Of a stretch of 52,739 bases of DNA, positions 3,032 through 50,356 are shown piece by piece; the first letter of the stretch is position 1, and the number at the start of each line of letters is the position of its first letter. This stretch comes from a virus (taxonomy: Duplodnaviria; Caudoviricetes): positions 1 to 52,739 of the IMG/VR virus record IMGVR_UViG_3300044512_003224; one strand, written 5' to 3'. The translations under genes were made by a program, and so were the position numbers. The notes under the pieces were generated by a model. The model was not told the origin of the DNA and searched no databases. It was given only the letters and a program-made list of their open reading frames with translations.

Positions 3032-3461
3032 TAATATAACAACAAGTGTAGACGCACTCAATCGCACACTAGAAGCGCCAGCGCTAGACCCTGTAGTACT
3101 GGCGCTCGCTAACGATTACCTATCAGGTAAAGGTGTAGGCGAAATCGCTGAAGAGTATGGTATCTCCGAAGATCGAGTGACTGCAGTGATTGAAAAGAAA
3201 GAGGTAAAGAACTATATTGATTCAGTCTTTGCCACGCAAGGATATCTTAATCGTGTTAAGCGCATCAATTTAATCAATCAGGTGATAGATCAAAAAATAC
3301 AAGAAGCAGTAGAGACAGGCATCTACTCTAAAAAAGATTTACTCGACTGGATGAAGCATTTACAAGAGGTAGAAACGTCTCTAAAACCAAAGCAGAGTGG
3401 TCCTGCTGTAGCAGTTCAAATTAACAACTATGATAAACTAATGAAAGATTTAATGGATTGA
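3021..3461 (+). CDS. terS: terminase small subunit (T5-like)
   Basis: N-terminal HTH (EIAEEYGIS), EVKNYIDSVF..GY.NR, KDLLD and VQINNYDKLM resemble T5-family TerS. Confidence 0.8.
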   Translation: MTSNNITTSVDALNRTLEAPALDPVVLALANDYLSGKGVGEIAEEYGISEDRVTAVIEKKEVKNYIDSVFATQGYLNRVKRINLINQVIDQKIQEAVETGIYSKKDLLDWMKHLQEVETSLKPKQSGPAVAVQINNYDKLMKDLMD

Positions 3462-3973
3462 TTCTTGTAGCTGGAGATTCTTATTCAGACTCTTCTTACT
3501 CTAATCAGACTTGCAGAAGGGGAAACAGTGAACCGTACTCGTGGGTCAACTTGCTATCTCAACATTATAGCATTCGCTGTGCAGCTCAAACAGGATGCTC
3601 AAATTATGATATAGTTTCGCAAATTAGCAGACGCAAAGACTACAATTTTTTAATTGTGAATGTATCTGCAGTTACTCGAACAGCATGGAACGCCCCTTAC
3701 CCTACTAAAAATAGCACGCTTTCAGAGGTTGAAGCAAATTTAAAAATAGCAAGCACCTTAGGTAAAAGAAGCGATACACTCTGTTGGACGCCTTTTCCTG
3801 GATATGAAGGATGCTCTGGAGTTCATTTTATTCCTCTCGAGCACCATAATGAAATGTATAATCGCAGCGTCGAGACAAGATGTACACAAAATCATATGGA
3901 CCGGGAGGGGCATATGATTTTATACGAGTGGATGTTAAAGCATTTAAAATCAAAAGGATATATCAATGAATAA
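3458..3973 (+). CDS. SGNH/GDSL hydrolase-like protein
   Basis: VAGDSYS block I, GCSN block II, C-terminal NHMDREGH. Confidence 0.65.
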   Translation: MILVAGDSYSDSSYSNQTCRRGNSEPYSWVNLLSQHYSIRCAAQTGCSNYDIVSQISRRKDYNFLIVNVSAVTRTAWNAPYPTKNSTLSEVEANLKIASTLGKRSDTLCWTPFPGYEGCSGVHFIPLEHHNEMYNRSVETRCTQNHMDREGHMILYEWMLKHLKSKGYINE

Positions 3974-4295
3974 TAAATTTTCTATTGGAGTGGTTGTTGC
4001 AATTGTGCTTCAAGTCTCCGCATTTGTTTGGTGGACAGCTCAACAAGCACAAACTATTGAACAACTCAATACACAAGTGAGTGAACTCACATCGCGCATG
4101 GCAATTGAAGATAGTATCAACTTACGTAACAGCATTGAACGTATAGACGAACTCGTCTTAGATCATGATGCGTATCTTGATGAAATCTACTATGTCATCA
4201 ACGATTTAGTTGAGTTTGCCCGATTCACTGAAAATCGTTGGGCAGACGTCTATGGCACTAACGACACCTATGAGCGTAAATTTGGAACTAAATGA
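3966..4295 (+). CDS. membrane-anchored coiled-coil protein
   Basis: N-terminal TM (IGVVVAIVLQVSAFVWW) followed by heptads; coupled to both neighbours. Confidence 0.6.
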   Translation: MNNKFSIGVVVAIVLQVSAFVWWTAQQAQTIEQLNTQVSELTSRMAIEDSINLRNSIERIDELVLDHDAYLDEIYYVINDLVEFARFTENRWADVYGTNDTYERKFGTK

Positions 4296-5056
4296 AAATT
4301 GGAATAATACAAGCTCTTGATTTGAGCAATGTTTCAGACTATCAACGTAAGTATTTTTGGCAACCATGTATGCAGAGTGTGCGCGATTGGGCAGAGCGAT
4401 GGGGATATGGTTATCATTTTTATGACTCTCCTGTCTTACCTGAAGCACGAAGTGCTTTAAACGTTAAGTGGAGACATCAAGATAAAGTACGAGAGAATCA
4501 ATTTAATAAGTTTGCCTGGATGCGAGATCAAGTAGATAACTATGATACGCTTTGTTGGATAGACTCGGATATATACGTATGGGGTACTCCAAGAAACATT
4601 TTTCATGATTGTTTAGATAAGTTTTACGCTCTTTATTATAGAAGAGTGTTAAACGATAAACTCTCATGGAAACGAGTAACTTTATCAATGTTTTGGGCTT
4701 CGTGCTCTTTGATTGTAGAAACTGCTGACTGGATGGATACAATGATACACAATCCAAATCAGAGAGGTGCATACTATACAACTTTTTTAATGTGTTGTCA
4801 GAAGCTTAACATAGATTTTACAGAAGAAATAGCTTTTAGTGCTTGGTATTATGAAAACAAAGATCGCTGTTATTTGCATGATGTATCTTCTGGCAGTAAC
4901 GAATGGTATGTTGTTCCAAAAGACTATGGCTATGTTTCACATAAAGATAGCTTTAATCATTTAACTGGTAAGGATAAACTTAGAGATAAACAACGCTTTG
5001 ATGCTTATCGAGCATATTTAGCCTATGAAGAAGGAAGAAATATATGGATAAAATGA
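4292..5056 (+). CDS. GT-A glycosyltransferase (GT34/nucleotide-diphospho-sugar transferase-like)
   Basis: WAERWGYGY, NKF, YDTLCWIDSDIYV (DxD), EE and C-terminal HLTG. Confidence 0.7.
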   Translation: MKIGIIQALDLSNVSDYQRKYFWQPCMQSVRDWAERWGYGYHFYDSPVLPEARSALNVKWRHQDKVRENQFNKFAWMRDQVDNYDTLCWIDSDIYVWGTPRNIFHDCLDKFYALYYRRVLNDKLSWKRVTLSMFWASCSLIVETADWMDTMIHNPNQRGAYYTTFLMCCQKLNIDFTEEIAFSAWYYENKDRCYLHDVSSGSNEWYVVPKDYGYVSHKDSFNHLTGKDKLRDKQRFDAYRAYLAYEEGRNIWIK

Positions 5057-5166
5057 TGAAAGAATGGATACAACTGATTCAGTATCACGATTCAATGCGT
5101 ACATGCTGGGCAGAGAGACAAAAAAATGCGTCGGCGCTTCGCGCAAAGTATCAACGAGATGAATGA
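5053..5166 (+). CDS. 37-aa peptide (not in ORF track)
   Basis: MMKEWIQLIQYHDSMRTCWAERQKNASALRAKYQRDE; ATGA overlap with GT stop and ATGAATGA overlap with radical SAM start at 5159. Confidence 0.5.
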   Translation: MMKEWIQLIQYHDSMRTCWAERQKNASALRAKYQRDE

Positions 5167-6025
5167 CACCGCCCGATTCGACTCATATATCACACATGTA
5201 GAATTAAGTTTTACAGATGTATGCAACTATGAATGCTCGTTTTGTCCTCAGTCAACTCACTTCAACTCTAAAAATATTATGAGTGAGCGCACGCTTCAAC
5301 GTGCACTAGATCATGTGCTAGAGTTTGATCATTTTGTACACATCTATGTTAGTGGTCGTGGAGAACCAACGCTACACCCTGAGTTTGAGCACTTTATTAA
5401 AACGATATATGATCGTATAAAAAATACTCCACATTCTCTTAAGATGTTTACAAACGGTGCGAGACTACGAGAGGTTGCGTATTTGATACCGTGCTTTGAT
5501 CGATTGTATTTAAACATCTATGATGAGACGCCTGAAGAAAAACGAGATGCCCTAGTTCGCGCTTTTCAATTTTTTTATAATGTTAATATTGAGTTTAAGC
5601 TTACTTCAATTCCTGAGTTCTATGGTTATAGGAGAGAGTTTAGTAAACGATTCCCAATAAAAAGACTATTTTCAAACCGTGCAGGCTCTGTGCACTCAGA
5701 AAAAACTTCTGATCGCTTTGTTCCAGATGCTCAGTATGCTTCTACTTGTGCTAGGCCGTTTTTCTCAATATTTGTTGAAGCTACTGGAGACTACTCCTTG
5801 TGCCACGATGATTGGAAGCACAGTTTAAGCTTGCCTAGTGTGCACAGCACAAGTATGATAGACTATGTAAATAAAGACCCGCAATTTTTACGCATAGCTA
5901 ATAACTTGTTACATGGACGCAGAGACTATTCTCCCTGCAATCGCTGTAACCGTAAGCTTGAGTGGATTCACTATTTTACTCCAGAAAAACTTCAATCTTT
6001 GAAAAAGGCTTACATAGATGTATGA
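5159..6025 (+). CDS. radical SAM protein with C-terminal SPASM/Twitch domain
   Basis: CNYECSFC (CX3CX2C), GRGEPTLHP, TNG, CARPF...G.YSLC..DW, PCNRC; start re-called from 5126 to 5159. Confidence 0.9.
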   Translation: MNDTARFDSYITHVELSFTDVCNYECSFCPQSTHFNSKNIMSERTLQRALDHVLEFDHFVHIYVSGRGEPTLHPEFEHFIKTIYDRIKNTPHSLKMFTNGARLREVAYLIPCFDRLYLNIYDETPEEKRDALVRAFQFFYNVNIEFKLTSIPEFYGYRREFSKRFPIKRLFSNRAGSVHSEKTSDRFVPDAQYASTCARPFFSIFVEATGDYSLCHDDWKHSLSLPSVHSTSMIDYVNKDPQFLRIANNLLHGRRDYSPCNRCNRKLEWIHYFTPEKLQSLKKAYIDV

Positions 6026-6857
6026 GTATATGCATTCAGTAGAACTTTCTCTCACTGATTTGTGTAATATGCAGTGTGTATTTTGTCCTCATTCTACTAC
6101 TTTTGCTAATAAAGCAAACTACATGAGTATAGAAACGCTACAGTGCTCATTAGATCACATATTATCGCTCGACCAATCAATTCAAATAACTTTAAATGGG
6201 CGAGGAGAGCCTACTCTTCATCCTGAGTTTGAAAGTTTAGTTGAGTTGTTATCTTCAAGAATTGCGTCTACAAATCATACTTTGAGCATGGGTACAAATG
6301 GTGCTCGACTTAGTAAATACTCACACTTAATTAGCATGTTTTCCCGTATTAACTTAAATATATATGATGAGCATTCTGTTTCAGAAATAAAAAATCTTTT
6401 AAACACATACTCAACTTACTCTAATATTCGCATATTACTAAAGAGAACTGATGTAAAAAAGAAAATGATATTAAACAGAGCACAGTCCTCTTTTTTTATA
6501 AAAAACTTTTCAAACCGTGCTGGATCTGTAAACCACGCTACAACATGTACACCTTTTAAGGCTCATCAAACTTACGGCAGTGCTTGTCATAAACCTTTTA
6601 CTTCTGCCTACATTGAATATAATGGAGAATATAGTTTGTGCTGTGATGATTGGAGTCGTAGCTTAAAACTTGGAAACGTGCATAAACAATCTATTAAAGA
6701 GTTATACACAAAAAATAATACTTTTAGAGATATTGCTATTGACCTACTTCATGGTAAACGAGAACAATATCCTTGCAAAAATTGTAATCGTAAGTTAAGA
6801 TGGTATGATGAATTTAGTGAAACTCACTTTGAAGCACTACAACGTGAGTATTTATAG
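6018..6857 (+). CDS. radical SAM/SPASM protein, tandem paralogue
   Basis: CNMQCVFC, GRGEPTLHPEFE, FSNRAGSV, CHKPF, LCCDDW, PCKNCNRKL.W shared with previous gene. Confidence 0.9.
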   Translation: MYEYMHSVELSLTDLCNMQCVFCPHSTTFANKANYMSIETLQCSLDHILSLDQSIQITLNGRGEPTLHPEFESLVELLSSRIASTNHTLSMGTNGARLSKYSHLISMFSRINLNIYDEHSVSEIKNLLNTYSTYSNIRILLKRTDVKKKMILNRAQSSFFIKNFSNRAGSVNHATTCTPFKAHQTYGSACHKPFTSAYIEYNGEYSLCCDDWSRSLKLGNVHKQSIKELYTKNNTFRDIAIDLLHGKREQYPCKNCNRKLRWYDEFSETHFEALQREYL

Positions 6858-6866
6858 GAGACAGAG

Positions 6867-7205
6867 ATGAGTAAACAACCACGTGATGATGGTAATGAAC
6901 CGATTCCAGTGCTTGCACTACGACCTGGAGGAGGTCAACAGATTGCAATTAGTGCATCTTCAAACCGTTCTAGTGAGATATCTGCCTCAGTTCGAGTTGT
7001 AACTCTATTCAGCACTGTTGATGCTTTTATTGAAGTTGGTGACAACACAGTGGAGGCTAACTCGTCTACTTCACATTTTTTACCTGCGCAAATTCCTTAT
7101 GATATTTCACTCGGTGCTGAGACACGTTCTTCAGATAATTCAAGATTTGTAGCAGTGATTCAGTCTGCATCTTCAGGAACACTTCATTTAAGTGAGCGTG
7201 ACTAA
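6867..7205 (+). CDS. small beta-rich probable virion protein
   Basis: AGGAG RBS; Ser/Ala/Val-rich; precedes fibre genes. Confidence 0.6.
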   Translation: MSKQPRDDGNEPIPVLALRPGGGQQIAISASSNRSSEISASVRVVTLFSTVDAFIEVGDNTVEANSSTSHFLPAQIPYDISLGAETRSSDNSRFVAVIQSASSGTLHLSERD

Positions 7206-7547: not shown

Positions 7548-10500
7548 ATGGCAAACGTAAAAATTACTGATTTAACCGAAATAGCGGCTGCAGATGTGGC
7601 CGCTACTGACGTTGTCCCTATTGTTGACGTTGACGTTGATGAAACCAAAAAAGTTTCACTCTCGAATACAGTTACAACAATAGCGTTTGCAAATGATTTT
7701 ACAACCTACACACAACTTAATGCAAATATAGATGTAGTGCAAGACAATGTCGCTACAGTTACTTCAACAGCTACTACTATCTCCTCAAATTTAACAGCCA
7801 ATTTAATTCAGATTGAAGCTAATGTCAATGTTGTACAAGATAATGTTGCGACTGTCACATCTACAGCTGAAACAATCTCTTCAAATCTTACAGCTAATCT
7901 AATTCAAATTGAGGCTAATGTTAACATTGTACAAGACAATGTCGCTACAGTCTCTACAAGTGTTGATACGCTTTCGACAAATCTGACTACTAATCTAGTT
8001 CAAATCTCAGCTAATTTAGACTCTCTACAAGATAATGTAAACTCTGTCTACTCTAATGTTACTACAGACTTTGCCACACTACTACTCTTAGATTCTGTGC
8101 AAGACAATGTCACTGCAGCTGAGGCAAATGTAAGCTCAGTAGAAGCGCGTAGAGACTCTAACACATTTTTCACATACAATGTAGATTCAAATGTTATTAT
8201 TAATGATGCCAATGTAGAACCTTCGAGCAATAATGAATTTTCCCTCGGTACAGAAGACGCTGTTTGGAAAGATCTTTATGTAGGACCAGGCACTATTTTT
8301 CTTGGCAATGTCAATATTAAGCCTAATGAAACAGGAACAGGTATTCTTGTAACTGGTGTTGATTCAAGCACCACAACTCTTGATACTCAAACTTCTAATG
8401 TTACAGCCTCACTTAATGATATACAAGACAATGTAGCCACCGTTTCTTCTAATCTTACAGCTAATTTAGTACAGATTGAAGCTAATGTCAATGTAGTACA
8501 AGACAATGTAGCCTCCGTTTCTTCTAATCTTACAGCTAATTTAGTACAGATAGAGGCTAATGTAAATGCTGTACAAGACAATGTTGCTAGCGTCTCTTCT
8601 AATCTTACAGCTAATTTAGTTCAGATCTCGGCGAATCTTGATGTAGTACAAGACAATGTAGCTGCTATTTTAGACGGCTCTTCACAGTTTACTGGACAAA
8701 TAACTATGCAAGATGACCTGATAGTTACAGGTAATTTAGCTGTAAATGGTGATACTACAGTTATTAGAACAATTAACTTAGATGTTGATGATAGAATTAT
8801 TATGCTTGCAAATACTGCAAGCGATGGAGCTCCGACAGCTGACGTAGGCATACTCTTTAATCGCGGAACAGAAGGTAATGCTGCATTATTCTATGATGAA
8901 TCTGCAGGCACCTTTAAACTTTCTGACACCGTAGACCCTTCTTCTAATATTCGTTTATCTCCTGTAAGCGCATCTAACCTTGATGTAGGCATTCTAACTT
9001 CACAAACTGTACGTTTTGATGGGACATCTGTGAACGATGCTATCACAGATAATGTTGCTCTTTTAGATACTCAAGCTAATGCTTTTTCTACCTATACTCA
9101 ACTTAACGCAAACATAAATGTAGTACAAGATAACGTTGCTAGCGTTTCTGCTAGAGTAAACACCGTTCAAGATAACGTTGCTAGCATCTCCTCTAACTTG
9201 ACAGCTAATTTAGTACAAATAGAAGCTAACGTAAATGTAGTACAAGATAACGTCTCTACAATCTCTTCTAACTTAACAGCTAATTTAGTACAGATAGAGG
9301 CTAATGTAAATGCGGTATCTTCTAATGTTGATGCTGTAGAGTCAAGACGAGCTGCTAACGTTACATTCACCATTGGAGCTGATACAGGATCAGATTTTGG
9401 AATTCTCTTAGGCAATACCGTAACTTTAGGCGGAAATGTAGGCATTTCTACTATTGTATCTGAAAATGCTTTAGACATTGATCTGGATATTAATAGCTTA
9501 ACTCATAATGCTAATTCAGTATCAACAGATTTTGTCGCTTATTATGATGTTGATAATGAAACTATAGTAAAATCTACAGTTGCAGAACTTGCACTTCAAG
9601 GAGTTCAAGGTATAACTGGCGCTCAAGGTACTGATGGCACAACAGGTGCTCAAGGTACTGATGGTACAACAGGCTCTCAAGGCACTACTGGCTCTCAAGG
9701 TACTGACGGTACAACAGGGTCACAAGGCGCTACTGGTGCTACAGGATCACAAGGTACTGACGGTACAACAGGGTCACAAGGCGCTACAGGTGCAACCGGC
9801 TCTCAAGGTACTGACGGTACAACAGGCTCTCAAGGCGCTACAGGCTCTCAAGGTACTGACGGTACAACAGGATCTCAAGGCGCTACAGGTGCTACTGGCT
9901 CTCAAGGTACTGATGGCGTAACAGGTTCACAAGGAGCCACAGGAACTCAAGGTACAACAGGCTCTCAAGGTACTGACGGTACAACAGGATCTCAAGGCGC
10001 TACAGGTGCTACTGGCTCTCAAGGTACTGATGGCGTAACAGGTTCACAAGGAGCAACAGGAACTCAAGGTACAACAGGTACACAAGGTACTGACGGAACT
10101 CAAGGTACTCAGGGTATCAGCTTTACTACTGGTGTTGGCGCAGGAGAGACAATTGTTTTTGAAGGCTCTACTGATGACGAGGCTGAGACTACTCTTACGG
10201 TAGCAGATCCTTCAGAAGATCGAACAATCACACTTCCTAACGCGACTGGTACAGTTATTACTAGCGGTAATCCAGAAGATTTTAGAGCAGGTATAGACTC
10301 ACTTGGAAACTTAGAACTATCTGCTAATACTATTGATATGGCAATTATCAATAATTTTGTTCCTGCCACACAAGAGGGTCGTATCCACTACGACACTGAT
10401 AGAAACTCTCTTATAGTTCAAGGGCCGACTGCTAACTCTAATCTTCATATAGGACAAGATCAGTTTATTTATGTTAAAAACGAATCTGGTGCAGATATTG

Positions 10501-13500
10501 ACAGGTTAAAGCCTGTATATCTTGATAGCGAAGCTTCAGGTGTGCCAACAATTTTATTAGCAAATGCTCAAGTAGAAGAAAAGTCGTATGTAGCAGGTTT
10601 AACTGCTGATTATATACCTAATAATGGTTTTGGATTTGTTCAGTGTGATGGTATTGTATTTGGTGATACAACAGGTCTTCTAGCAGGTGAGCGTGTTCAT
10701 CTTGGGCCGTCTGATGGGGCACTTCAGATAACAGCTCCTACGTTTCCGTATTTTGCTACTGACATTGGTATAGTTCTTATTGTAGACGGCAATAATGGAT
10801 GTATCTTCTTAGATATTATAGATCACTTTGCTGAAACATTTAGAGTAGTAGGTGAAGCGTATGTAGACGCTGACTTAACAGTTGGAGGTAACCTTTCAGT
10901 TTTAGGCACTGAGTCAATTACCTCTGTAAACTCGCTTGCAGTTTCAAACTCATTTATGTATCTAAACTCTGGTGATACAATTGGCGACTCTGGTACTACA
11001 TATATCGGTACAGGTCTTGATGATGGTACTTTAACAGGTCATTATACTGGTCCAATTACTGAAACATTCAATGTAATGATTAATACAACAGGTACCCCAG
11101 ATACTTTTGATTTTACTCTTGATAATTTTGCTACAAATGCATTAGTTGGTGTTTCTATAACAGGCGGTGATCAAACACTCGCAAACGGAATTTCAATTAA
11201 ATTTGAAGCTACTACAGGACATACAGCAGGAGATCAATGGAGTGGAGTTGCAGCCCCTTCTAATATAGATACAGGTTGGGTATCGAATCGTAACACAGGA
11301 CTTAGTGAGCCAGGCTATACTCATCTTGGTAGCTTTTTTGACGTTTCTGATTCAAAATTCAAATTTTTTAAAGAATATGATCCAGAACCTGAAGGTACAA
11401 TTAATACAGGGCATGCTTCTTTTGAGCTTGGTACAGTTGTTGCAACAACCTTTGAAGGTAATGCAACTAGTGCAGATGCTTTATCTACAGCTCGTGCAAT
11501 TGCACTGGCAGGAGACGTAACAGGTACTCAAAACTTTGATGGATCAGCAGGTATTTCAATTACCGCCTCTCTTGATGTAAATAATTTGACTACATCGACT
11601 GATACAGCTTCTGATGATTTTATTCCCTTTTATGATGTGACAGGTTCTGTAACACGTAAAGCAACTGTTGCTAATCTTGCTTTACAAGGTGTACAAGGTA
11701 CTGATGGTACAACAGGATCACAAGGTGCCACTGGAGCTACTGGCTCTCAAGGTACCGATGGTACTACAGGTTCTCAAGGCGCTACTGGAGCTACTGGCTC
11801 TCAAGGAACTGACGGTACAACAGGTTCTCAAGGCGCTACTGGAGCTACTGGCTCTCAAGGAACTGACGGTACTACTGGATCTCAAGGTGCTACTGGTGCT
11901 ACTGGCTCTCAAGGAACTGACGGTACTACAGGTTCTCAAGGTACTGACGGAACTACAGGTTCTCAAGGAACTGACGGTACAACAGGCTCTCAAGGTGCTA
12001 CTGGAGCTACTGGCCCTCAAGGTACTGACGGCACAACAGGATCTCAAGGTGCTACTGGAGCTACTGGCTCTCAAGGCACTACAGGATCTCAAGGTACAAC
12101 AGGAACTGCAGGAGACACAGGGTCTCAAGGTACAACAGGTAATACTGGAACTCAAGGCGCAACAGGGTCTCAAGGTACAACAGGTAATACTGGATCACAA
12201 GGAGCTACTGGATCAACAGGATCGCAAGGCACCACAGGGTCACAAGGAACTACTGGTAATACAGGCTCTCAAGGTGCTACTGGAGCTACTGGCTCTCAAG
12301 GCACGACTGGTACTGAAGGTGATTCAGGAACTCAAGGAATTGCCGGGGTCAGTGGAGAAGGTGGTGGAGTATTCGTTATTGAGGCTGAACGTAGCGGTAG
12401 TGTAACTTTAAATCAATTTTTTGCTATTGGTAACGGCGCTCAACCTACTAATGGTGTATATATAGCAGAAGATGTTCAATTAGAGCACCTTGCTATTGCT
12501 TCAGATTCTTCACAATCAGCAATAACAGTTGAACTTTTCATAAATGGGTCAGGATCTGGACAAACTGTTTCATTATCTAGCCAAGCTCAGAATATTACAT
12601 CAGGCATAGGTTTAGCTGTTAGTGCAGGTAGCCGAATAACTTTTAAATGTACTTCAGGTAGCGCTAACGCTACCACTGTTGTAGCTGCATGGTTTTTAAC
12701 AGGAGGTGCAAAAGGCGCACAGGGAACTACCGGCTCTCAAGGTACAACAGGTAATACAGGATCACAAGGAACAACAGGCACACAAGGCGTTGAAGGAAAC
12801 TTTGGTGGAGCTACTTTCCATTATAGTTTTGATACTGATACAGGTACTTCTGATCCAGGAAGCGGTGATCTAAAATTTAATAATTCTAATATTCAAAGTT
12901 CTACTGGAATGAGAATAGACGATCAAGACCAAAATGGTGATGATATACAATCATTCCTTCGCACAATTGATGATAGCACTAGTGCCATAAAAGGTCATTT
13001 TAGAGTCTCTAATAAAACTAATGCAGATGATTTTGCGCTATTTACTATTTCCTCTTTAACTGAAGAAACTGGTTACTTTTTAGTTCAATCTAATTACGTA
13101 TCTGGACCTACAAGCTCGTTTACTAACGGTGAAGAACTTATAATCACCTTTGCCCGAACTGGTGATAAGGGTGATACAGGTAACACAGGATCACAAGGAG
13201 CTACAGGTTCAACAGGTTCTCAAGGCGCAACGGGTGCTACTGGTTCTCAAGGCGCAACGGGTGCTACTGGTTCGCAGGGTACTACAGGAAATACTGGTTC
13301 TCAAGGTGCAACAGGAAATACTGGTTCTCAAGGTGCTACTGGTACACAAGGAGCTACAGGATCTACAGGTTCTCAAGGTGCAACTGGATCTACAGGATCA
13401 CAAGGCACAACTGGATCTCAAGGAGCTACAGGATCAACAGGATCTCAAGGCGCTACCGGCACTCAGGGTACAACAGGTAACACAGGTACTCAAGGAACAA

Positions 13501-14159
13501 CCGGTAATACTGGTTCTCAAGGAACAACAGGCACTCAAGGTGCTACAGGTAATACTGGCTCACAAGGTACGACTGGTAATACCGGGTCACAGGGAGCAAC
13601 AGGTGCTCAAGGTACAAGCTTTGATACAACTGGTGACAAAACACTTGTTGGTAATTTAACTCTTGAATCAACCGATAGTGGCAGTAGCGCTGCACCAACA
13701 CTAGGTTTGTATAGAAATAGCTCATCACCTGCTGGTCAGGACGACTTAGGAGTAATGGCTTTCCAAGGTGAAGATGCAAATGGTGATAAAATTGAGTATG
13801 CTGAAATTGGTGCTCAAATCTATAGCACAGGCCCTAGTAGTCCTCAAGGTATGTTAGGCTTTAGTGCTGTAAAAGCCGGTACTATGACAGAAATGATTAG
13901 AATATCTGGATTTCATGATACTCTGTTTTCAAACCAAGATGTAAAGCTTTTCACAAATGTAGATCTAATATTTACAGGACCTACAAATGATGGTAACCAA
14001 ACTACAATAACAACAGAAACTCAGACAGCTGCCCGCACTATAACTTTACCTGATGCAACAGGAACCGTCGCTCTTACCTCAGACTTACCTACCAATCAAG
14101 ACTATGGATTGGTAACTGGAGGAGTTGACGGATCTGAAGATTATGGAAGCGTTGCATGA
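7548..14159 (+). CDS. giant collagen-like/coiled-coil fibre protein (2203 aa)
   Basis: AAGGA RBS; N-terminal KITDLT fibre motif, Asn-rich coiled-coil repeats, four Gly-X-Y blocks, RTITLP[ND]ATGTV motifs, C-terminal DYG..DYGS. Confidence 0.9.
7700..9340 (+). repeat. eight copies of a 25-32-aa coiled-coil repeat in three blocks
   Basis: SNLTANL[VI]QIEANVN[VA]VQDNV; 75-nt period around 8425-8660; boundaries approximate. Confidence 0.85.
9597..10116 (+). repeat. collagen-like Gly-X-Y block 1
   Basis: [12 protein letters not shown] triplets; contains a 117-nt near-exact tandem duplication (9843 and 9960). Confidence 0.9.
11685..12350 (+). repeat. collagen-like Gly-X-Y block 2
   Basis: ([18 protein letters not shown])n, 54-nt period, then GNT variants. 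Confidence 0.9.
12704..13615 (+). repeat. collagen-like blocks 3 (~12704-12800) and 4 (~13161-13615)
   Basis: [15 protein letters not shown] triplets separated by a globular domain. Confidence 0.85.
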
Positions 14160-14195
14160 TAATAAAATTTAAAAATATAATAAGGAGTGTCAATA

Positions 14196-14751: not shown

Positions 14752-15057
14752 ATGGCTGATAATATTCGTGAACTTGACCAAATACAAACTGAGTTAGATC
14801 GATTACATGAGCGTTCTCAAGGTAATAAGGCGACTATATCCGCACACGAAGCTGTGTGTGAAGAACGTTACGCACAAATTATGACCACAATGACTACAAT
14901 GCATGAAGAGATACAGTCTTTACATAAAAAAGTAGATGATGTATCTGACCTTGCTACACAAGGACGTACCTCCTTAAAAACACTACTTTGGATAGGCGGA
15001 GTAGTTGCGAGCATTATCGCTCTTTTAACAATGATTTTAAATGTATTTCCTCGATGA
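14752..15057 (+). CDS. XhlA-like/holin-like membrane protein
   Basis: AHEAVCEERY coiled coil plus a single C-terminal TM helix. Confidence 0.55.
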   Translation: MADNIRELDQIQTELDRLHERSQGNKATISAHEAVCEERYAQIMTTMTTMHEEIQSLHKKVDDVSDLATQGRTSLKTLLWIGGVVASIIALLTMILNVFPR

Positions 15058-16295
15058 GCTTTTTTAGACTAAACGTAGATAAGCTTTTAACTAAACTTCC
15101 ACATCCTGTTACTTTTAATGAGTCTCAGCAAGAAATGATTGAAGGACTTAATAAGAATCGTTTCTTTGTTCATATTGCTGCTCGTCGTACCGGTAAGTCT
15201 TATGCAGCTGCTATTCTAGCTTTTGCTAAACTACTTGAACCGGGTCAGCAAGTGATGGTTGTTGCTCCAAACTTTTCGCTATCATCAATAATCTGGGACT
15301 ATGTTACTGATTTAATTAAGCAACTTGAAATAGAGGTAGAGCGTTTTAATCAAAAAGATAAAGTTGTTAGACTGATAAACGGATCAGTTTTTAGACTTCT
15401 TTCAGCTAACAATCGGGATTCACTCGTTGGACGTGCTGCAAATTTACTAATAGTAGATGAGGCTGCTATCATTCCTAATGAAGAATATTTTACTCGTGAT
15501 TTACGTCCTGCACTTTCAACCTTTAAAGACTCTCGTTGTTTGTGGATTTCAACTCCTCGTGGAAAAGGTAACTATTTGTATACCTACTATCTTCGTGGAC
15601 AAGATGGTGAGTATGATGACTGGGGATCGTGCGTTCATACTTGGAGGTCGAACCCTCTGTTATCAGAAAAAGATATTGAAGAAGCACGTAAAGCTGTTTC
15701 TCGTGCACTATTTGCTCAAGAGTATGAGTGTGAGTGGACAACAACTGAGACCCAAATATTTGAAGCATTAGATGAAGCCAAACATATTGGCGAATTTGTA
15801 GGTGAACGATTCTCTGAGGTAATTGGTGGTCTTGACGTAGGATATAGAGATGAAAATGTTTTTGTTGTGATTGGTTATGACGGTCAATCCTATTATATTT
15901 TAGATGAATATATATCAAAAGAGTCTACAACTTCAGAACTTGCTGCTGCAATACAAGAAAAAATGGATGAGTGGAATATAGATTCTATCTATATTGACTC
16001 TGCTGCTCAACAAGTAAAAGCTGACTTTGCCTATGATTACGATATATATTGTGAAAATGCTATTAAATCAGTTAACGATGGTATAAATTTTTTACAAGTA
16101 TTAATTGAACATGATAATATATATTTTGACACTCTTGGGGCGTCTCATACTTTTTCTGCTATGAGTTCGTATAAGTGGAACCCAAATACCGAAACACCAA
16201 AACCTGTGCATGATTGGGCTTCTCACCCCTGTGACGCTGTAAGATACGCAATCTATACACACTCTAAGATGAGCAATATCTCAATTTATGCCTAA
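15054..16295 (+). CDS. terL: terminase large subunit
   Basis: ARRTGKS Walker A, LLIVDEAA Walker B, ISTPRG, GLDVG, HPCDAVRY; ATGA coupling places start at 15054. Confidence 0.97.
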   Translation: MSFFRLNVDKLLTKLPHPVTFNESQQEMIEGLNKNRFFVHIAARRTGKSYAAAILAFAKLLEPGQQVMVVAPNFSLSSIIWDYVTDLIKQLEIEVERFNQKDKVVRLINGSVFRLLSANNRDSLVGRAANLLIVDEAAIIPNEEYFTRDLRPALSTFKDSRCLWISTPRGKGNYLYTYYLRGQDGEYDDWGSCVHTWRSNPLLSEKDIEEARKAVSRALFAQEYECEWTTTETQIFEALDEAKHIGEFVGERFSEVIGGLDVGYRDENVFVVIGYDGQSYYILDEYISKESTTSELAAAIQEKMDEWNIDSIYIDSAAQQVKADFAYDYDIYCENAIKSVNDGINFLQVLIEHDNIYFDTLGASHTFSAMSSYKWNPNTETPKPVHDWASHPCDAVRYAIYTHSKMSNISIYA

Positions 16296-44685: not shown

Positions 44686-45330
44686 GTGGCACTTACAAAA
44701 GTTACTACTACAGTTATTAACGCTAATGCAGTTGCAAACACCTCAGTTGCAAATTCAGCTGTTAATCGTTCTGGTCATATAGCAAACGCAACCATTGAAA
44801 TTCAACACTTAGCTGATAGTGCAAATACAGCTACTCTTAATAGTGGTATGGTAGCAAATGTTAATACGATTACAGATAATGTAGACTCAGTTCAATCAAA
44901 TGTTTATGCAAATATTAGTAGTATAGATATTGTTTCATCAAACACTGCAGCATTTTTAGTTTTTGGACAAGAGGCTCTTCTCACAGGGCAAACATCATTT
45001 TTCGAAGCAAAAACTACTAACGGCGCACAAAACGGACAAGGATGGAGACTACCCACAGCAGGTATAGTCACTCACATAACTGCTCAGATGAATGTTCACA
45101 CTCAATCAGCAGGATCTGTGCTACAGGCTGATTTATATAAAAATGGCGCAAGTGCAGCAGCTGACGGTAATAACTTAGTAGTAACAGGAGCAGCTACAGG
45201 AGCTGCTGGTAATTCAAATGTTGTAAGCACAAGCTTTGCTGCTGGAGATAGGCTAGGTCTTCAATTTAAGCATTCTGACGGTACACTTGCAACCGATGAT
45301 CATGCTTTTATAGTGAGACTATCAGTATAG
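44686..45330 (+). CDS. probable virion fibre/decoration protein
   Basis: AAGGAG RBS; MALTKV N-terminus, Asn-rich coil, beta-sandwich C-terminus resembling a domain of the giant fibre (LYKNG / LFING). Confidence 0.7.
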   Translation: MALTKVTTTVINANAVANTSVANSAVNRSGHIANATIEIQHLADSANTATLNSGMVANVNTITDNVDSVQSNVYANISSIDIVSSNTAAFLVFGQEALLTGQTSFFEAKTTNGAQNGQGWRLPTAGIVTHITAQMNVHTQSAGSVLQADLYKNGASAAADGNNLVVTGAATGAAGNSNVVSTSFAAGDRLGLQFKHSDGTLATDDHAFIVRLSV

Positions 45331-46316
45331 TGAGAAAATATAGACAACTTACAACTGAATTGACATTTCGTTGTAACGCTAAATGTCCTGCATGTCATAG
45401 ACAAAAACCACTTTCTATAAATTTAAATGATGCTTGTTATACAATAAGTTTAGAACGCTTTAAACAACTTTTTTACCCTGAACTACTTAACAATTTAGAG
45501 TGGTTAGTTCTTAATGGAAACTTTGGCGATTCTATTATGAATAAACAGTTTCGTGAAATTATCTCATATGTTAAGTCACATGGCACACGTATTTTAATAC
45601 ATACTAATGGCGGCATACACGATGATGCGTATTGGACAGACGTAGGTAATATACTCGATGATCGGGATATAATTAATTTTGATTTAGATGGACTTTCTGA
45701 TACTCATCACATCTATCGCATTAATACTAAATATGAAAATGTGTTATCTAATGCTTGTTCCGTCATAAAAACTGCTAGACCACAAGTACATTGGAAATAT
45801 ATTGTTTTTGAACATAATCGTCATCAGGTAGATGAAGCACGTGCTACGGCTGAAAAGTGTGGGTTTACAACTTTTTCTACTGTAAAAACATCAAGAGATG
45901 TATTTGCTCCTAAATCAGGAGCTTTTGTTCACTCTAAAAAGACCAAACAATTCGATAAGGCAGAGCGTCAAATACACTGTGTATGGGATAATTGGAATAA
46001 GTGGTACATCTCTCCAGAAGGTTTAGTATTTAGATGCTGTTGGACTGGTGGTCACTATTATGATCAGGATAATTCACGTTTTTACTATCCTCCTCAGTTT
46101 ACTCGTCTTTTTAATGGATTTGATGTTCCACTCGAAAAGATTTTAAGTTATAATTATTGGAATAAACTACAGAGTTTTCTACAAGGCTATGAGCGATCTT
46201 TTAAACTTTGTAAATCACAATGCGGTAAAATTGTATCATCTATTGAAAAAACTGAGGAAAATTTACAAACAGGTGAGAAAATAACTTTTAACTCTGCAAA
46301 TCAGTTAGGAAATTAA
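45330..46316 (+). CDS. radical SAM protein with C-terminal Cys cluster
   Basis: CNAKCPAC, GNFGD, HTNG, DG...H..YR, VFEHNRHQ, RCCW, CKSQC. Confidence 0.9.
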   Translation: MRKYRQLTTELTFRCNAKCPACHRQKPLSINLNDACYTISLERFKQLFYPELLNNLEWLVLNGNFGDSIMNKQFREIISYVKSHGTRILIHTNGGIHDDAYWTDVGNILDDRDIINFDLDGLSDTHHIYRINTKYENVLSNACSVIKTARPQVHWKYIVFEHNRHQVDEARATAEKCGFTTFSTVKTSRDVFAPKSGAFVHSKKTKQFDKAERQIHCVWDNWNKWYISPEGLVFRCCWTGGHYYDQDNSRFYYPPQFTRLFNGFDVPLEKILSYNYWNKLQSFLQGYERSFKLCKSQCGKIVSSIEKTEENLQTGEKITFNSANQLGN

Positions 46317-47412: not shown

Positions 47413-47446
47413 CAGTTATAAATATTCTTTTTAAGGAGAACTAAAA

Positions 47447-48085: not shown

Positions 48086-48110
48086 TAAATTTTAATTAAA
48101 GGAGAAAATC

Positions 48111-48383: not shown

Positions 48384-48393
48384 GGTGATTGAT

Positions 48394-48594
48394 ATGGCAA
48401 AAACACTATCAGGAGTAGAAGCGAGAGAAGGACAGTCTGTTGTAATTGGTGATAACCGTTACGGCATGAGAGAAGAGTATGATCCAGCAGTAAAACGTGA
48501 AACTTTAGACTACTATCGTCGAGGAGACACACTTACTGTTAAAGAAGTAAAAAATCCTAACTCTCAAACAGTAAAGACTGTAAAAGTAAAATGA
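48394..48594 (+). CDS. hypothetical protein
   Basis: AAGGTGA RBS before ATG 48394 (MAKTLSG). Confidence 0.7.
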   Translation: MAKTLSGVEAREGQSVVIGDNRYGMREEYDPAVKRETLDYYRRGDTLTVKEVKNPNSQTVKTVKVK

Positions 48595-48716
48595 TTGTTC
48601 CTGAAGTTTTTCAGCGTTCTATGTCAAAGCCTAAAAAGCGAAAGCCTAAGAAAGCGAAAAACAAGGGATCAATTCCTTACAAAGATATTTATAAACAAAA
48701 AATTGTTTTTAAATAG
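48591..48716 (+). CDS. 41-aa Lys-rich peptide (not in ORF track)
   Basis: ATGA coupling; MIVPEVFQRSMSKPKKRKPKKAKNKGSIPYKDIYKQKIVFK. Confidence 0.55.
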   Translation: MIVPEVFQRSMSKPKKRKPKKAKNKGSIPYKDIYKQKIVFK

Positions 48717-49248
48717 CACCTTTTGCCTTTAACAAATTATATAACCAAGTTTTATCGTAAGGCGCACATATATGAAGTTGCGCCTTACTTGTTTCTATAA
48801 TCTTTGAAAATATACGTTTATGTTCTACATCAACAGAGATAAACACCAAATCATCTATCCCCAACCAAGAATAATCAAAATCATAAGCATCACAAGTTAT
48901 AATCTTAATATCATTCTTAGCAGGAGATGACGCAACCAGTTTTCTACTAATTTTAGCACGTTTTTCATCTATCTCTAAACCTACTTGTTTGATGTGAGGA
49001 TATTGTTTGTGTACATCAAACATTGAGTATGGGTATATCCCACTACCAATCATGATTAAATTATTACACTTTGGAAAACGATATCGCTGTTTTTTATCTC
49101 TAAGTGTTCTTACTATCCACGCATTATGTTCAGCAGACTCATAAGCTAACTCAAGTCTATTTTTTTGAGAAAACTGAGTAATCTGAAACATCTCATCTTT
49201 GATTAACAATTTTTGCCAACGTTCTTTTGCAAGATAAACGTCATCCAT
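48709..49248 (-). CDS. class I SAM-dependent transferase, nicotianamine synthase/CntL-like
   Basis: LIMIGSGIYPYS, VGLEID..RA..SRKLV, DLVFIS..VEHK; start re-called to 49248 (ATGGATGA overlap). Confidence 0.65.
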   Translation of the reverse strand: MDDVYLAKERWQKLLIKDEMFQITQFSQKNRLELAYESAEHNAWIVRTLRDKKQRYRFPKCNNLIMIGSGIYPYSMFDVHKQYPHIKQVGLEIDEKRAKISRKLVASSPAKNDIKIITCDAYDFDYSWLGIDDLVFISVDVEHKRIFSKIIETSKAQLHICAPYDKTWLYNLLKAKGAI

Positions 49249-50356
49249 TGTGAATTGATCTGATGACATTTGACGACTCTTCAACTCCTTTTAAACTAAA
49301 GTTAAACTCAACTGGTGCTGTTGATAGCATTTTTGATATTTTATCTTCAAGTTGTGAAAACTCTTTATTATTAATAACTCCGTGAAATCCGTACGGCTCA
49401 AAAGTATATGCTCTGACAAACTGCTCCATTTTTTGTCCGTCCTGTCTTGGAACAATAATAGACGGAACACTACTTTGAAGTATTTCTACAGTAGTATTAT
49501 ATCCTCCATAAGTAATAACTCCTGCACAATCAACTAACTTTTCTCGTAAATTAGGAATATACTCTACTAACTGCATATTATCTTTTTTGCCAGTTTTAAG
49601 TTTAGTATATTTATTAGCAACAGGCATAACAAACTCATAATCAGGAAATCTATGAGCGATTTTACTGATTTGCTTGAAAAGAAGAACGCCTTCCTCTTTA
49701 TTTAGTCCTGTGCAGACGTAAACTATATTATTCTTTTTTTCGTGCTTTGGTAAACTATTATCACACACATAACCTGTATAATGCAGATTACTATTAATGT
49801 CGTCTATGATAGCTTTTGAATTTGAGTGTACAGTGCGATCACTAAACAATGGTAAAATATTAGGATCTCCGTGTACAAGTATTTTTTCTGCATAGTATTT
49901 ACACACTAAGTTTTGCGAGTAGTTAACCCAATCTTGTAGCGGAGTATCATGTGGTTCATCCCATGGAAAGTCTCTAACAGAAATGATAATCTTTATATCT
50001 CTTTTACGACATTCTTCAAAGTATCTAAAGTACTCATGTGCAAATTGTTGACGGCAAAATGGAAAACCCTCACATACTAAAGTTTTGATTGAGTATTTTT
50101 CAAGAGTTTTTATAAATTGGGAAATTCTGTGTGTAATAAGCTCTTCAGTCATAATAAACTGAAATATATTTTTTACTTTAGATACGTCAAAGTCTCGTAA
50201 AAAAGATATCATTGGTACATTGTATTTTAGAGGGGGAGAAAATAACTGTTCAATTATTACTACCTCTTCAAATTTAGAAACTTCCTCAGCTATATATTTA
50301 GTTCGCTGACTATGTCCTAATCCTCTATAATACTGAGTAAGAAATCCAACTGTCAT
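49241..50356 (-). CDS. GT-B glycosyltransferase (GT28/COG4671-like)
   Basis: GLGH..R, EGFPF, SVRD, VHGDP, YTGYV, GGYNTTVEIL, VPR....EQ..RA. Confidence 0.88.
   Translation of the reverse strand: MTVGFLTQYYRGLGHSQRTKYIAEEVSKFEEVVIIEQLFSPPLKYNVPMISFLRDFDVSKVKNIFQFIMTEELITHRISQFIKTLEKYSIKTLVCEGFPFCRQQFAHEYFRYFEECRKRDIKIIISVRDFPWDEPHDTPLQDWVNYSQNLVCKYYAEKILVHGDPNILPLFSDRTVHSNSKAIIDDINSNLHYTGYVCDNSLPKHEKKNNIVYVCTGLNKEEGVLLFKQISKIAHRFPDYEFVMPVANKYTKLKTGKKDNMQLVEYIPNLREKLVDCAGVITYGGYNTTVEILQSSVPSIIVPRQDGQKMEQFVRAYTFEPYGFHGVINNKEFSQLEDKISKMLSTAPVEFNFSLKGVEESSNVIRSIHNG

Follow-up and report, generated by a model that had tools for sequence, protein, structure and literature searches.

The 52,739-base contig analysed here (IMG/VR record IMGVR_UViG_3300044512_003224; "the window" below means this whole stretch) carries, in and beside its late structural genes, nine genes for putative tailoring enzymes: four radical S-adenosylmethionine (SAM) enzymes (rSAMs), three glycosyltransferases (GTs) or GT-like proteins, an SGNH-like protein and a SAM-dependent protein with some likeness to nicotianamine synthase (NAS). 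The window is a whole viral contig, estimated to be 45% complete; it comes from an uncultured marine siphovirus, of whose genome it covers about 45%. We found that the enzyme set consists of a lineage-wide core, made up of the genes starting at 16288, 34056 and 45330 and the GT-B/NAS-like pair on the other strand, and of exchangeable cassettes. The differing conservation of these genes, together with turnover in strains more than 90% identical of the islet that holds the cassettes, argues for a fixed core plus cassettes and against one co-inherited system.

The siphovirus late region runs on one strand from about 1.2 kb to 48.6 kb. It opens with two tail-terminator-like genes, terS, a variable islet, a giant collagen-like fibre gene and a collar-type fibre gene; continues with terL, a GT, an HNH gene, the portal, a protease-capsid fusion, adaptor, terminator, tube and chaperone genes and a 1507-aa tape measure; passes into a lambda-like tail tip (gpL-like, an rSAM, two NlpC/P60 proteins, a JAB protein, a gpI-like and a 1944-aa J-like protein); and ends with further fibre genes, an rSAM and small genes. 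On the other strand there follow a SAM-dependent gene, a GT-B, thyX, a 205-aa gene and a flap endonuclease. Coordinates are given in Table 1, and genes are named below by their first position.

Table 1. Enzyme genes and neighbouring features discussed in the text, by position in the window
Feature	Position	Strand	Remarks
SGNH/GDSL-like protein	3458..3973	+	171 aa, strain-variable cassette right after terS
Small protein, N-terminal hydrophobic stretch	3966..4295	+	109 aa, part of variable islet
GT-A-like (GT34/GT8-like) putative glycosyltransferase	4292..5056	+	cassette gene
Radical SAM/SPASM enzyme A	5126..6025	+	299 aa, rare cassette, motif CNYECSFC
Radical SAM/SPASM enzyme B, tandem paralogue of A	6018..6857	+	279 aa, motif CNMQCVFC
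Conserved 112-aa protein preceding fibre gene	6867..7205	+	no family match
Collagen-like fibre, candidate acceptor	7548..14159	+	2203 aa; PHROG tail-fibre and collagen-like families to E 4e-121
Large terminase terL	14988..16295	+	~42% identical to TerL of 106-122 kb enterobacterial siphoviruses
GT64-like GT-A glycosyltransferase	16288..16932	+	214 aa, core gene, between terL and HNH/portal
gpL-like minor tail protein	32504..34099	+	Pfam Phage_tail_L E 1e-27
N-terminal-Twitch radical SAM	34056..35276	+	406 aa, core gene inside tail-tip module, motif CNFKCRMC
Two NlpC/P60 paralogues (35258, 35634) and JAB protein (36041)	35258..36418	+	Pfam; split gpK-like set
Variable fibre-like gene just upstream of 45330 rSAM	44686..45330	+	collagen-like matches at locus
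Radical SAM with C-terminal Cys-rich domain	45330..46316	+	328 aa, core gene, motif CNAKCPAC
SAM-dependent Rossmann-fold protein	48709..49284	-	CntL/NAS-like SAM-binding part (NCBIfam, PDB profile)
GT-B glycosyltransferase (GT1/GT28-like)	49241..50356	-	core, next to thyX
ThyX thymidylate synthase	50356..51081	-	Pfam Thy1 E 6e-42
C-terminal end of gene cut by contig end	52490..52738	-	by eye like SGNH-like ORF beside Twitch-type rSAM in relative L164

Measured in bases, with overlaps negative, the junctions in the islet are -4 (terS/3458), -8 (3458/3966), -4 (3966/4292), +69 (4292/5126) and -8 (5126/6018). Further along they are -8 (terL/16288), -7 (16288/HNH), -44 (gpL-like/34056), -19 (34056/35258), -1 (44686/45330) and 0 (45330/46317). 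Stop/start overlaps of this kind argue for co-translation of the enzymes with structural genes.

An earlier reading of the window, made without database searches (the sequence-only reading), had described nine enzymes in this arrangement, those on the late strand being co-oriented and stop/start-coupled with their neighbours. All nine open reading frames (ORFs) are present at those places, and the late-strand ones do overlap or abut adjacent genes; one start is to be moved, gene A of the rSAM pair beginning at 5126, so that the 5159 given before is an internal Met. The flanking structural genes were likewise borne out by family matches. Profile and fold placement, which that reading had named as a check, gave firm labels for six of the nine enzymes (the four rSAMs, the GT64-like GT-A 16288 and the GT-B 49241) and leads for three (SGNH for 3458, GT-A for 4292, NAS/CntL-like for 48709). 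The count of four rSAMs stands, each having the CX3CX2C motif and family matches. Two of the three proposed GTs are secure, and 4292, with no profile match, stays a lead; the SGNH and NAS-like ORFs exist under labels of the same grade, 3458 having no family match and 48709 a match to the SAM-binding part only. The GT-B/NAS-like pair was correctly placed on the other strand.

Conservation across the lineage

Relatives were fetched from a viral contig collection with three anchors, and all window proteins were mapped onto the kept loci: terL (190 relatives confirmed), the gpL-like gene (225) and rSAM 45330 (121), with 80 kept in each case. Loci were selected on anchor similarity, which makes the count for 45330 itself a biased one. 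The lineage records are all fragments (26-45% complete), and what follows on function draws on sequence, fold and gene context. Cultured phages are only distant kin: TerL finds its closest cultured counterparts in siphoviruses of Salmonella, Escherichia and Pectobacterium (Table 1), and the capsid shares about 33% identity with its counterpart in 112-121 kb Vibrio siphoviruses; these are T5-like phages. Marine surveys, Tara among them, supplied the homologues of the 45330 protein, which lie on contigs of up to 200 kb.

Median identities to the window, each taken over the loci fetched with the anchor of that region, were 86% for TerL, 83% for the portal and 60% for the GT 16288; 64% for the gpL-like protein and 47% for the Twitch rSAM; and 78% for rSAM 45330 vs 50-55% for the fibre genes that flank it.

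The core enzymes

The GT 16288 was found directly after terL in all 67 loci with at least 650 bp of room. Its match to Pfam GT64 (PF09258; 20.1 bits, E 4e-4) falls under the 21.3 cut-off and spans profile positions 5-226 of 245, and its sequence profile gave no useful match in the PDB. An AlphaFold model (pLDDT 91.7) matched mouse EXTL2 best (E 7e-12, TM 0.77), followed by KfiA, EXT1/2 and heparosan synthase. D78-D79-D80 and R156-G-D-D are invariant in 39 sequences. The protein is probably a retaining hexosaminyl-type GT-A.

The Twitch-type rSAM 34056 matches NCBIfam NF033640 (N_Twi_rSAM) over nearly its whole length (353.4 bits vs a cut-off of 170; residues 14-403 to profile positions 2-398 of 398), with a Pfam Radical_SAM score of 26.1 bits, under the 29.5 cut-off. 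In 39 sequences C17, C35, C36, C81 and C84 at the N-terminus and C134, C138 and C141 are invariant; against the PDB the rSAM core alone matches (viperin, E 3e-5). Where 600 bp of room or more is left, the gene lies 3' of the gpL-like gene in 75 of 78 loci. The remaining three (L144, L150 and L153) are without both the Twitch rSAM and the first NlpC/P60 paralogue, the gpL-like gene running into the second paralogue, which probably reflects a single deletion in one clade. The gpL-like protein, encoded directly 5' of the rSAM, has exactly four Cys residues (454, 463, 502 and 509), all in its C-terminal Phage_tail_L part. In phage lambda, gpL binds an iron-sulfur cluster at C-terminal Cys residues. 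The first NlpC/P60 paralogue has an invariant C17, H87 and H99; a complex prediction for this protein with the Twitch rSAM scored 0.00, which speaks neither for nor against binding. At this locus the functions of lambda gpK are split over three genes in reversed order, two NlpC/P60 paralogues and then JAB.

The third core enzyme, rSAM 45330, matches phrog_21308 (radical SAM protein, E 3e-25) and scores 18.9 bits with Pfam Radical_SAM, under the 29.5 cut-off; its sequence profile found no useful match in the PDB. Across 39 sequences, with a mean column identity of 85%, C15, C19, C22, C217, C236, C237, C294 and C298 are invariant, and the protein is 74-92% identical in the 80 kept relatives of 121 confirmed. 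A homologue search returned 291 proteins, of which the 120 best are all at least 77% identical and say nothing on distant kin. The predicted model (pLDDT 64.5) has a poor C-terminal domain, and its fold matches, at TM 0.45 or below, were BlsE (the best, TM 0.45), then SkfB, SuiB, EpeE and MoaA. BlsE is a sugar-nucleoside rSAM, and this match, though weak, leans towards sugars. We dropped these matches as a guide to chemistry, since they mix sugar, peptide and nucleotide enzymes at low TM around a poorly modelled C-terminal domain. Downstream of this gene lie two very basic 69-aa proteins (46317-46526 and 47170-47379), which are among the best conserved of the region (median identity 81% and 83%, in 47 relatives each).

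All four rSAMs of the window have a Cys-rich auxiliary domain, C-terminal in 5126, 6018 and 45330 and N-terminal in 34056; the Twitch part of NF033640 matches 6018 at residues 189-259. The CX3CX2C motif is invariant in the 39-sequence alignments of 34056 and 45330.

Beyond the late strand, the GT-B 49241 scores 37.5 bits with Glyco_tran_28_C (cut-off 22), and its family profile matches GT1 structures in the PDB at E 4e-10. Its partner 48709 matches NCBIfam CntL at 23.3 bits vs a cut-off of 350, over residues 59-130 only, and CntL in the PDB at E 2e-6, over profile positions 63-134 only; since the match is confined to the SAM-binding stretch, SAM-dependent Rossmann-fold protein is the safest label. 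The pair was present on the opposite strand in all 31 loci with at least 4.4 kb after 45330, in every case co-oriented with thyX, a dUTPase-sized gene and the flap endonuclease. The gene fragment at the right end of the contig was compared by eye, translations side by side, with the SGNH-like ORF of the relative L164; the rSAM next to that ORF has a Radical_SAM match and an N-terminal SPASM match.

Searches with tblastn of a 50,697-record phage collection returned no match to any of the three GTs, only distant matches to 45330 and 34056 (21.8-29.1% identity) and no cultured member of the lineage.

An exchangeable islet after terS

The interval from terS to the conserved 112-aa gene measures 3.4 kb in the window and 82-1088 bp in the nine relatives in which both ends are seen. 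Among the relatives examined it is empty or holds small ORFs, an SGNH-like gene or a GT-A-like gene. The islet is thus exchangeable between strains, and its SGNH-like gene, GT-A-like gene and rSAM/SPASM pair count as strain-level cassettes. In run X2, contigs of strains about 91-95% identical to the window join 3461 to 3978 or 5151 to 6867, and so are without the SGNH-like gene or without the pair; the second join comes from a relative about 91% identical.

The SGNH-like protein 3458 has a GDS motif at residues 6-8. In 55 sequences G6, S8 and H146 never vary and D7 and G46 hardly do; with regard to the family's blocks (I GDS, II G, III GxN, V DxxH), N49 is invariant only in the four closest sequences and the Asp of block V was not seen. 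A language-model atlas gave weak leads to GDSL lipases (0.92, 125 features), no Pfam, PHROG or NCBIfam match was found, and PDB profile matches were not significant (TAP, E 0.67). Homologues occupy the same spot in L008, L015 and L016 only. The small protein 3966, which follows, matches phrog_19911 (unknown function, E 6e-4) and was found in none of the 80 terL loci.

For the putative GT-A 4292, the atlas scored 0.97 to GT34/GT8 clusters with 183 shared features, and a DxD motif (D91, D93) is invariant in three sequences; searches of Pfam, PHROG and NCBIfam and of PDB profiles returned nothing. The islets of L041 and L049 and, as a partial copy, of L024 contain weak homologues (24-25% identity), and that of L042 has a partial DxD-bearing ORF.

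The two rSAM/SPASM enzymes are 44.6% identical to each other. Pfam scores are 42.4 (Radical_SAM) and 24.4 bits (SPASM) for 5126, and 31.7 and 44.8 bits (SPASM, PF13186) for 6018, against cut-offs of 29.5 and 21.5. The pair had no match in the 80 terL loci, including nine with the whole terS-to-fibre interval readable. Homologues of 6018 number 25 among 5.8 billion protein clusters, the best relative on a viral contig being 31% identical. The 112-aa protein 6867 was found in 16 of the 80 terL loci, each time immediately 5' of the fibre. Whether ORFs 6867 and 7205 might be peptide substrates of the pair, in the manner of ribosomally synthesised and post-translationally modified peptides (RiPPs), was considered and rejected: 6867 is kept in relatives without the pair, and neither ORF contains Cys.

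Fibre genes as candidate acceptors

The collagen-like fibre 7548 contains 591 aa of G-X-Y in four runs. Position Y is Thr in 95 cases, Gln in 70 and Asp in 18; position X is Thr in 67, Ser in 56 and Ala in 45. Pro makes up 1.6% of the whole protein, which is therefore almost Pro-free. SGNH-like or GT-A-like genes lie in the islet next to the fibre operon in several relatives. At the other end of the late region, the interval from gene 44222 to rSAM 45330, which holds the variable fibre-like gene, ranges over 701-2806 bp in 78 relatives, and collagen-like (fibre) matches occur there in 70 of the 80 loci. The giant fibre and the collar-type fibre (7548-14750) are encoded between terS and terL, at a distance from the tail-tip and side-fibre genes, and a second collar-type paralogue at 42984 is 46% identical over 139 aa.

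Precedents for sugared collagens exist in the literature. Glycosylation is documented for the collagen-like BclA and BclA1, and mimivirus modifies collagen that it encodes itself (PMC8968730). BclA3, with its transferase SgtA, is a further glycosylated collagen-like spore protein (PMC7157674). Mycobacteriophage capsid and tail-tube subunits also carry glycans (PMC12619734). Most bacterial collagens are reported as unglycosylated (PMC8968730).

Similar enzymes in relatives, other viruses and bacteria

The close relative G002, whose 45330 homologue is 92% identical to that of the window, extends beyond the window's right end and there carries an ORF that is SGNH-like by eye with a further Twitch-type rSAM beside it. 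Its early region encodes an NAD-dependent epimerase/dehydratase (E 2e-30), a methyltransferase, a B12-binding rSAM and another rSAM, amid gp32-like, SbcCD and ribonucleotide reductase genes. The set is thus not confined to late genes. Five related records have one to four Radical_SAM matches each, though they are 26-41% complete. The early region of G002 also holds (L323, 3347-11176) four paralogues of 389-402 aa, 29-40% identical to one another, with a 161-aa fragment; Pfam and PHROG returned no match for them, and they are flanked by a weak aminotransferase-like gene and the Twitch-type rSAM. A PHROGs search with ten G002 proteins left eight without a match and assigned two to families of unknown function.

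Tandem arrays of radical SAM genes occur in other viral contigs (L255-L258, at about 4.0-14.8 kb of each locus, L267 and L270). One of them, L255, has seven N-terminal-Twitch-like genes (25-27% identical to 34056) and one 6018-like gene within about 11 kb, then a carbamoyltransferase (PF02543, E 6e-27). Two contigs of jumbo size (357 and 156 kb) carry five Twitch-like genes each. A 6.2-kb contig binned as Woesearchaeota (L314) has homologues of the Twitch rSAM (29%) and of 45330 (24%) side by side, and may be a viral fragment in an archaeal bin.

Scanning the Twitch-rSAM alignment over one genome per species gave 35 bacterial loci. In 12 of these, all from actinomycetes (L289-L302) and including Micromonospora carbonacea and Streptomyces curacoi, genes for an FkbM methyltransferase and a PhyH oxygenase come before the homologue; the 13 kb fetched also hold an EryCIII-type GT in 11 of the 12 and a halogenase in five. 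By their gene content these loci have the make-up of orthosomycin clusters. The rSAM of the unit bears only a generic NCBIfam name, and the phage Twitch rSAM is about 31-33% identical to the actinomycete homologues. In the avilamycin pathway the rSAM AviX12 has been described as catalysing an unusual sugar epimerisation (PMC8234114). The 12 homologues in orthosomycin-type clusters favour glycan tailoring, and the contexts of the related enzymes would point to sugar over peptide chemistry, short of proof.

A possible glycan toolkit and its acceptor

We tentatively read the enzyme set as a two-layer toolkit for building and tailoring glycans, whose acceptor may be the virion proteins and above all the collagen fibres; this is the explanation we favour, at less than even confidence. 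The gene identities, their embedding and the conservation pattern were observed directly, the families and contexts suggest glycan substrates, and the acceptor is our guess. The first layer would be the part fixed in the lineage: the GT64-like GT-A, predicted to be translated with terL, HNH and portal; the Twitch-type rSAM, predicted to be translated with the lambda-like tail-tip genes (gpL-like, NlpC/P60, JAB, gpI-like, J-like); the third rSAM, after the side-fibre genes; and the GT-B with its SAM-dependent enzyme beside thyX on the other strand. The second would be the exchangeable islet between terS and the collagen-fibre operon, holding in the window strain the SGNH-like esterase or acyltransferase, the GT34/GT8-like GT-A and the duplicated rSAM/SPASM pair. 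In such a pathway the GTs would move host or phage nucleotide sugars onto the acceptor in the cytoplasm late in infection; the rSAMs would alter the attached sugars at unactivated carbons, by epimerisation (as described for AviX12), dehydrogenation, decarboxylation or C-methylation; and the SGNH enzyme would put on or take off O-acyl groups. Through its cassettes the islet may diversify the virion coat between strains.

Virion proteins seem a reasonable, if tentative, choice of acceptor given the position in late operons, the apparent lack of signal or membrane segments, the composition of the fibre and the precedents from glycosylated collagens and mycobacteriophages. By eye the translations of 3458 and 16288 start straight with the conserved core, with no N-terminal hydrophobic stretch, which fits cytoplasmic action. 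A stronger form of the proposal would make the Twitch rSAM and the GT64-like enzyme an obligatory step of virion maturation, with infectivity depending on radical modification of a tail-tip or fibre protein or of the glycan it bears, and the terS islet a strain-level coat diversifier. We consider this rather unlikely.

Several observations weigh against the toolkit acting on the virion. The core enzymes co-occur with everything in the lineage, so that co-occurrence is uninformative for them. For the cassettes, the rSAM pair is missing from all 80 terL loci, nine of them fully readable from terS to the fibre, and all of these keep the collagen fibre; the close-relative contigs without the pair or without the SGNH-like gene likewise indicate that the fibre can do without the cassettes. 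Bacterial collagens often have Thr at position Y, yet most are reported as unglycosylated (PMC8968730). The enzymes of the same kind among the replication genes of a relative would also fit host or DNA targets. The pelagimyophage authors read their fibre-region GTs and rSAM cassettes as modifying the host O-chain (PMC7029224), and GT-A and GT-B enzymes of phages do glycosylate DNA and often lie near thymidylate-synthase-like genes, terminases and epimerases (bioRxiv 10.1101/2023.12.21.572611). The phage Twitch rSAM is only about a third identical to its actinomycete homologues, its kinship with AviX12 rests on gene context and not on the AviX12 sequence, and the fold matches of 45330, with its poorly modelled C-terminal domain, mix sugar and peptide enzymes.

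Set against the sequence-only reading, these results keep its theme and change its frame. Glycan chemistry, which it had proposed, is the best-supported theme, on the strength of the GT64-like GT-A, the GT-B and the FkbM-PhyH contexts in 12 of 35 Twitch-rSAM bacterial loci. The Thr/Ser-rich collagen fibre it had singled out as the target is present as a Thr-rich, almost Pro-free collagen. The single dispersed system it had described gives way to core genes that are lineage-wide and to an SGNH-like gene, a GT-A-like gene and an rSAM/SPASM pair that are strain cassettes. It had held that a lack of co-occurrence with fibre genes would count against it, and for the pair this is what was found, with no copy in 80 terL loci, nine of them readable from terS to the fibre, and the fibre kept in all of these. 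Its late-expressed pathway is at odds with the same kinds of enzyme in the early region of a close relative. It had also known of no phage pathway combining GTs with rSAMs, whereas pelagimyophage tail-fibre regions already carry GTs and rSAM cassettes at the level of annotation (PMC7029224).

Alternative explanations

The GTs, the SGNH-like protein and the rSAMs might instead remodel the envelope of the infected cell, altering lipopolysaccharide (LPS), capsule or S-layer glycans so as to mask receptors and block superinfection or the trapping of progeny, and leaving the virion untouched. This is the reading offered for the pelagimyophage cassettes, and GT8, which 4292 resembles along with GT34, is called mainly an LPS family in the same source (PMC7029224). 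The fold neighbours of 16288 are polysaccharide polymerases and transferases (KfiA, heparosan synthase, EXT), a weak PDB lead for 3458 is the SGNH domain of an LPS O-acyltransferase, though not significantly (E 0.95), cassette turnover between strains fits an arms race at the cell surface, and like enzymes lie in a relative's early region. However, three of the enzymes are fixed in late structural operons with overlapping stops and starts, which would be poor timing shortly before lysis; by eye the enzyme translations have no signal peptide and no GtrB- or Oac-type membrane domain; and the lineage is probably lytic and large, with no integrase in the annotated parts of the 26-45% complete records. 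We regard envelope remodelling as unlikely.

Decidedly unlikely, in our estimation, is hypermodification of DNA, in which the GT-A by the terminase, the GT-B with its SAM-dependent enzyme (aminocarboxypropyl- or methyl-transferring) by thyX, and one or more rSAMs would decorate bases with tailored sugars against restriction. Phage GT-A enzymes (with R...DDD...EDY/F motifs) and GT-B enzymes do hypermodify DNA; GT-B pathways often lie by thymidylate-synthase-like genes, and the GTs near terminases, epimerases and second GTs (bioRxiv 10.1101/2023.12.21.572611). The invariant DDD and R156-G-D-D of 16288 fit this, as does the constant company of the GT-B/NAS-like pair with thyX, the dUTPase-sized gene and the flap endonuclease. 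The best structures for 16288, however, are EXTL2 and KfiA and not the TarP, JGT or A64R types reported for DNA GT-A enzymes (bioRxiv 10.1101/2023.12.21.572611). A ThyA-type hydroxymethylase (PF00303) was found in none of five records, 26-45% complete, while the control was positive in 10 of 14 genomes; a search of the same five records for TET/JBP (PF12851) was also negative, but its control matched nowhere and the result is uninformative. The thymidylate synthase that is present is ThyX, and we know of no ThyX that makes hydroxymethyl-pyrimidines. An rSAM wedged among tail-tip genes is also hard to tie to DNA.

We see a slim chance that the SPASM/Twitch rSAMs act on peptides, working like RiPP maturases on virion proteins (34056 on the tail tip, 45330 and the pair on fibres) to form thioether or carbon-carbon cross-links or epimerised residues, the GTs being separate. 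SPASM/Twitch enzymes include many peptide maturases. Partial NCBIfam matches to PapB, WgkB, CcpM and HxsC, the presence of SkfB, SuiB and EpeE among the fold matches of 45330, and the position of 34056 between a four-Cys gpL-like protein and the NlpC/P60 and JAB proteins are in line with this idea. The joint absence of the rSAM and the first NlpC/P60 paralogue in 3 of 78 loci points the same way, but is weak evidence because a single deletion in one clade probably removed both neighbouring genes. Among the Pfam and NCBIfam matches there was no RRE-like peptide-recognition domain, the small proteins beside the rSAMs are not Cys-rich, with 6867 kept where the pair is missing, and an oligosaccharide cluster is the one bacterial context of the Twitch family that is informative.

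That the genes share no function at all, being unrelated auxiliary or moron genes with different targets (cofactor or metabolite synthesis, counter-defence) whose positions are fixed by history, would suit the gene-to-gene differences in conservation, the rSAM subfamilies that family, PDB-profile and fold matches assign to no one chemistry, and the Campylobacter phages CP220 and CPt10, whose rSAM genes have a suggested metabolic role (PMC2853527), but is improbable in view of the recurrence together in the lineage of GTs, SGNH-like genes, rSAMs, a methyltransferase and a sugar-nucleotide enzyme, the repeated rSAM arrays with a carbamoyltransferase in other viral contigs, and the auxiliary Cys-rich domain common to all four rSAMs, with the NF033640 Twitch match in 6018.

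Comparison with known systems

Virion glycosylation in mycobacteriophages resembles the toolkit proposed here in that phage GTs are thought to act in the cytoplasm on virion proteins and their genes travel with structural genes (PMC12619734). It differs in that glycans were measured there, on the capsid and on tail-tube C-termini, whereas the window's lineage is known from genes alone; the part of that report available to us mentions no rSAMs, and host and phage lineage are unrelated (PMC12619734). Pelagimyophages are closer in habitat and gene content, being marine, with GTs and rSAM cassettes amid fibre genes and with cassette gain and loss between close genomes, as in the terS islet; they are T4-like myoviruses, however, and these genes were treated as variable auxiliary ones (PMC7029224). 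The window's lineage is a siphovirus with three enzymes at exact positions in the packaging, tail-tip and fibre modules.

Clusters for orthosomycins of the avilamycin/everninomicin type share the N-terminal-Twitch rSAM, found as a homologue in the FkbM methyltransferase, PhyH and rSAM unit of the 12 loci, 11 with GTs; AviX12 itself is reported to epimerise a sugar within an oligosaccharide (PMC8234114). From gene context, and not by sequence comparison, we infer that the actinomycete Twitch rSAMs may be orthologues of AviX12. Unlike those clusters, the phage has no PhyH or halogenase neighbours. The mimivirus system of collagen hydroxylation and glycosylation and BclA/BclA1 are alike in having collagen-like surface fibres sugared by dedicated transferases, nearby or virus-encoded, but use 2-oxoglutarate hydroxylases or simple GTs, radical SAM tailoring being described for none of them (PMC8968730). 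DNA glycan hypermodification shares DDD-motif GT-A and GT-B enzymes and neighbours such as thymidylate-synthase-like genes, terminases and epimerases (bioRxiv 10.1101/2023.12.21.572611); here the synthase is ThyX, the structural neighbours of 16288 differ, and no hydroxymethylase was found in the five records. The Campylobacter phages CP220 and CPt10, with 11 and 12 rSAM genes, are likewise rich in rSAMs, partly in an exchangeable module and with a role that is unexplained; they are myoviruses of a microaerophile whose rSAM genes are read as metabolic helpers and are not described in tail-tip or packaging operons (PMC2853527). Thus GTs and rSAMs near phage fibre genes, and rSAM-rich phages, have already been noted in the literature (PMC7029224, PMC2853527). 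CP220 has a weak match to 45330 (22.6% identity, E 2e-7). In the literature searched we found no description of an rSAM gene fixed lineage-wide in a lambda-type tail-tip module, nor of a GT64-like gene fixed lineage-wide between terL and the portal.

Other features of the window

Position 18560-21268 is a single 902-aa ORF with a head maturation protease match at residues 3-341 and a major head protein match at 467-884. It looks like a protease-capsid fusion and is kept at full length in relatives (66-89% identity). Just after it, 21347-21649 encodes a protein of 100 aa whose C-terminal part includes a stretch of some 35 Glu/Asp residues, an acidic tail that may be scaffold- or decoration-related. 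The tail-terminator family phrog_3907 has three paralogues, two within 1601-3031, upstream of terS and remote from the tail genes, and one at 24365-24820; the first has an extra N-terminal part of about 200 aa with matches to large virion structural proteins.

Scans of the window found promoter-like sites (52 vs 50.4 and 75 vs 71.4 expected) and terminator-like sites (8 vs 9.6 and 7 vs 8.3 expected) at chance level, and operon boundaries cannot be drawn from them. In the metatranscriptome run X1, which shared few words with the window, contigs fell on a relative's capsid gene and on collagen repeats and none on the enzyme genes, which says nothing on the expression of the latter.

Implications

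Radical SAM genes in phages are mostly unexplained, and to our knowledge mycobacteriophages and giant viruses are the only cases to date in which phage-encoded virion glycosylation has been measured. The lineage described here offers a comparative handle on both, with three enzymes at exact operon positions, 121 to 225 related metagenomic contigs confirmed per anchor gene, and a neighbouring islet that swaps SGNH, GT and rSAM cassettes between strains more than 90% identical. Were DNA or the host envelope the acceptor, these would still be new enzyme families, among them the rare rSAM/SPASM family of the islet. If the virion is the acceptor, radical tailoring of sugars or residues would join the maturation of phage particles; it would offer an explanation for how proline-free Gly-X-Thr collagen fibres are stabilised or disguised, and would add a layer of host range and of immune or defence evasion invisible to sequence-based predictions of receptor binding. 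Should the core enzymes prove obligatory for maturation, this would be the first radical-SAM-dependent maturation of a virus particle.

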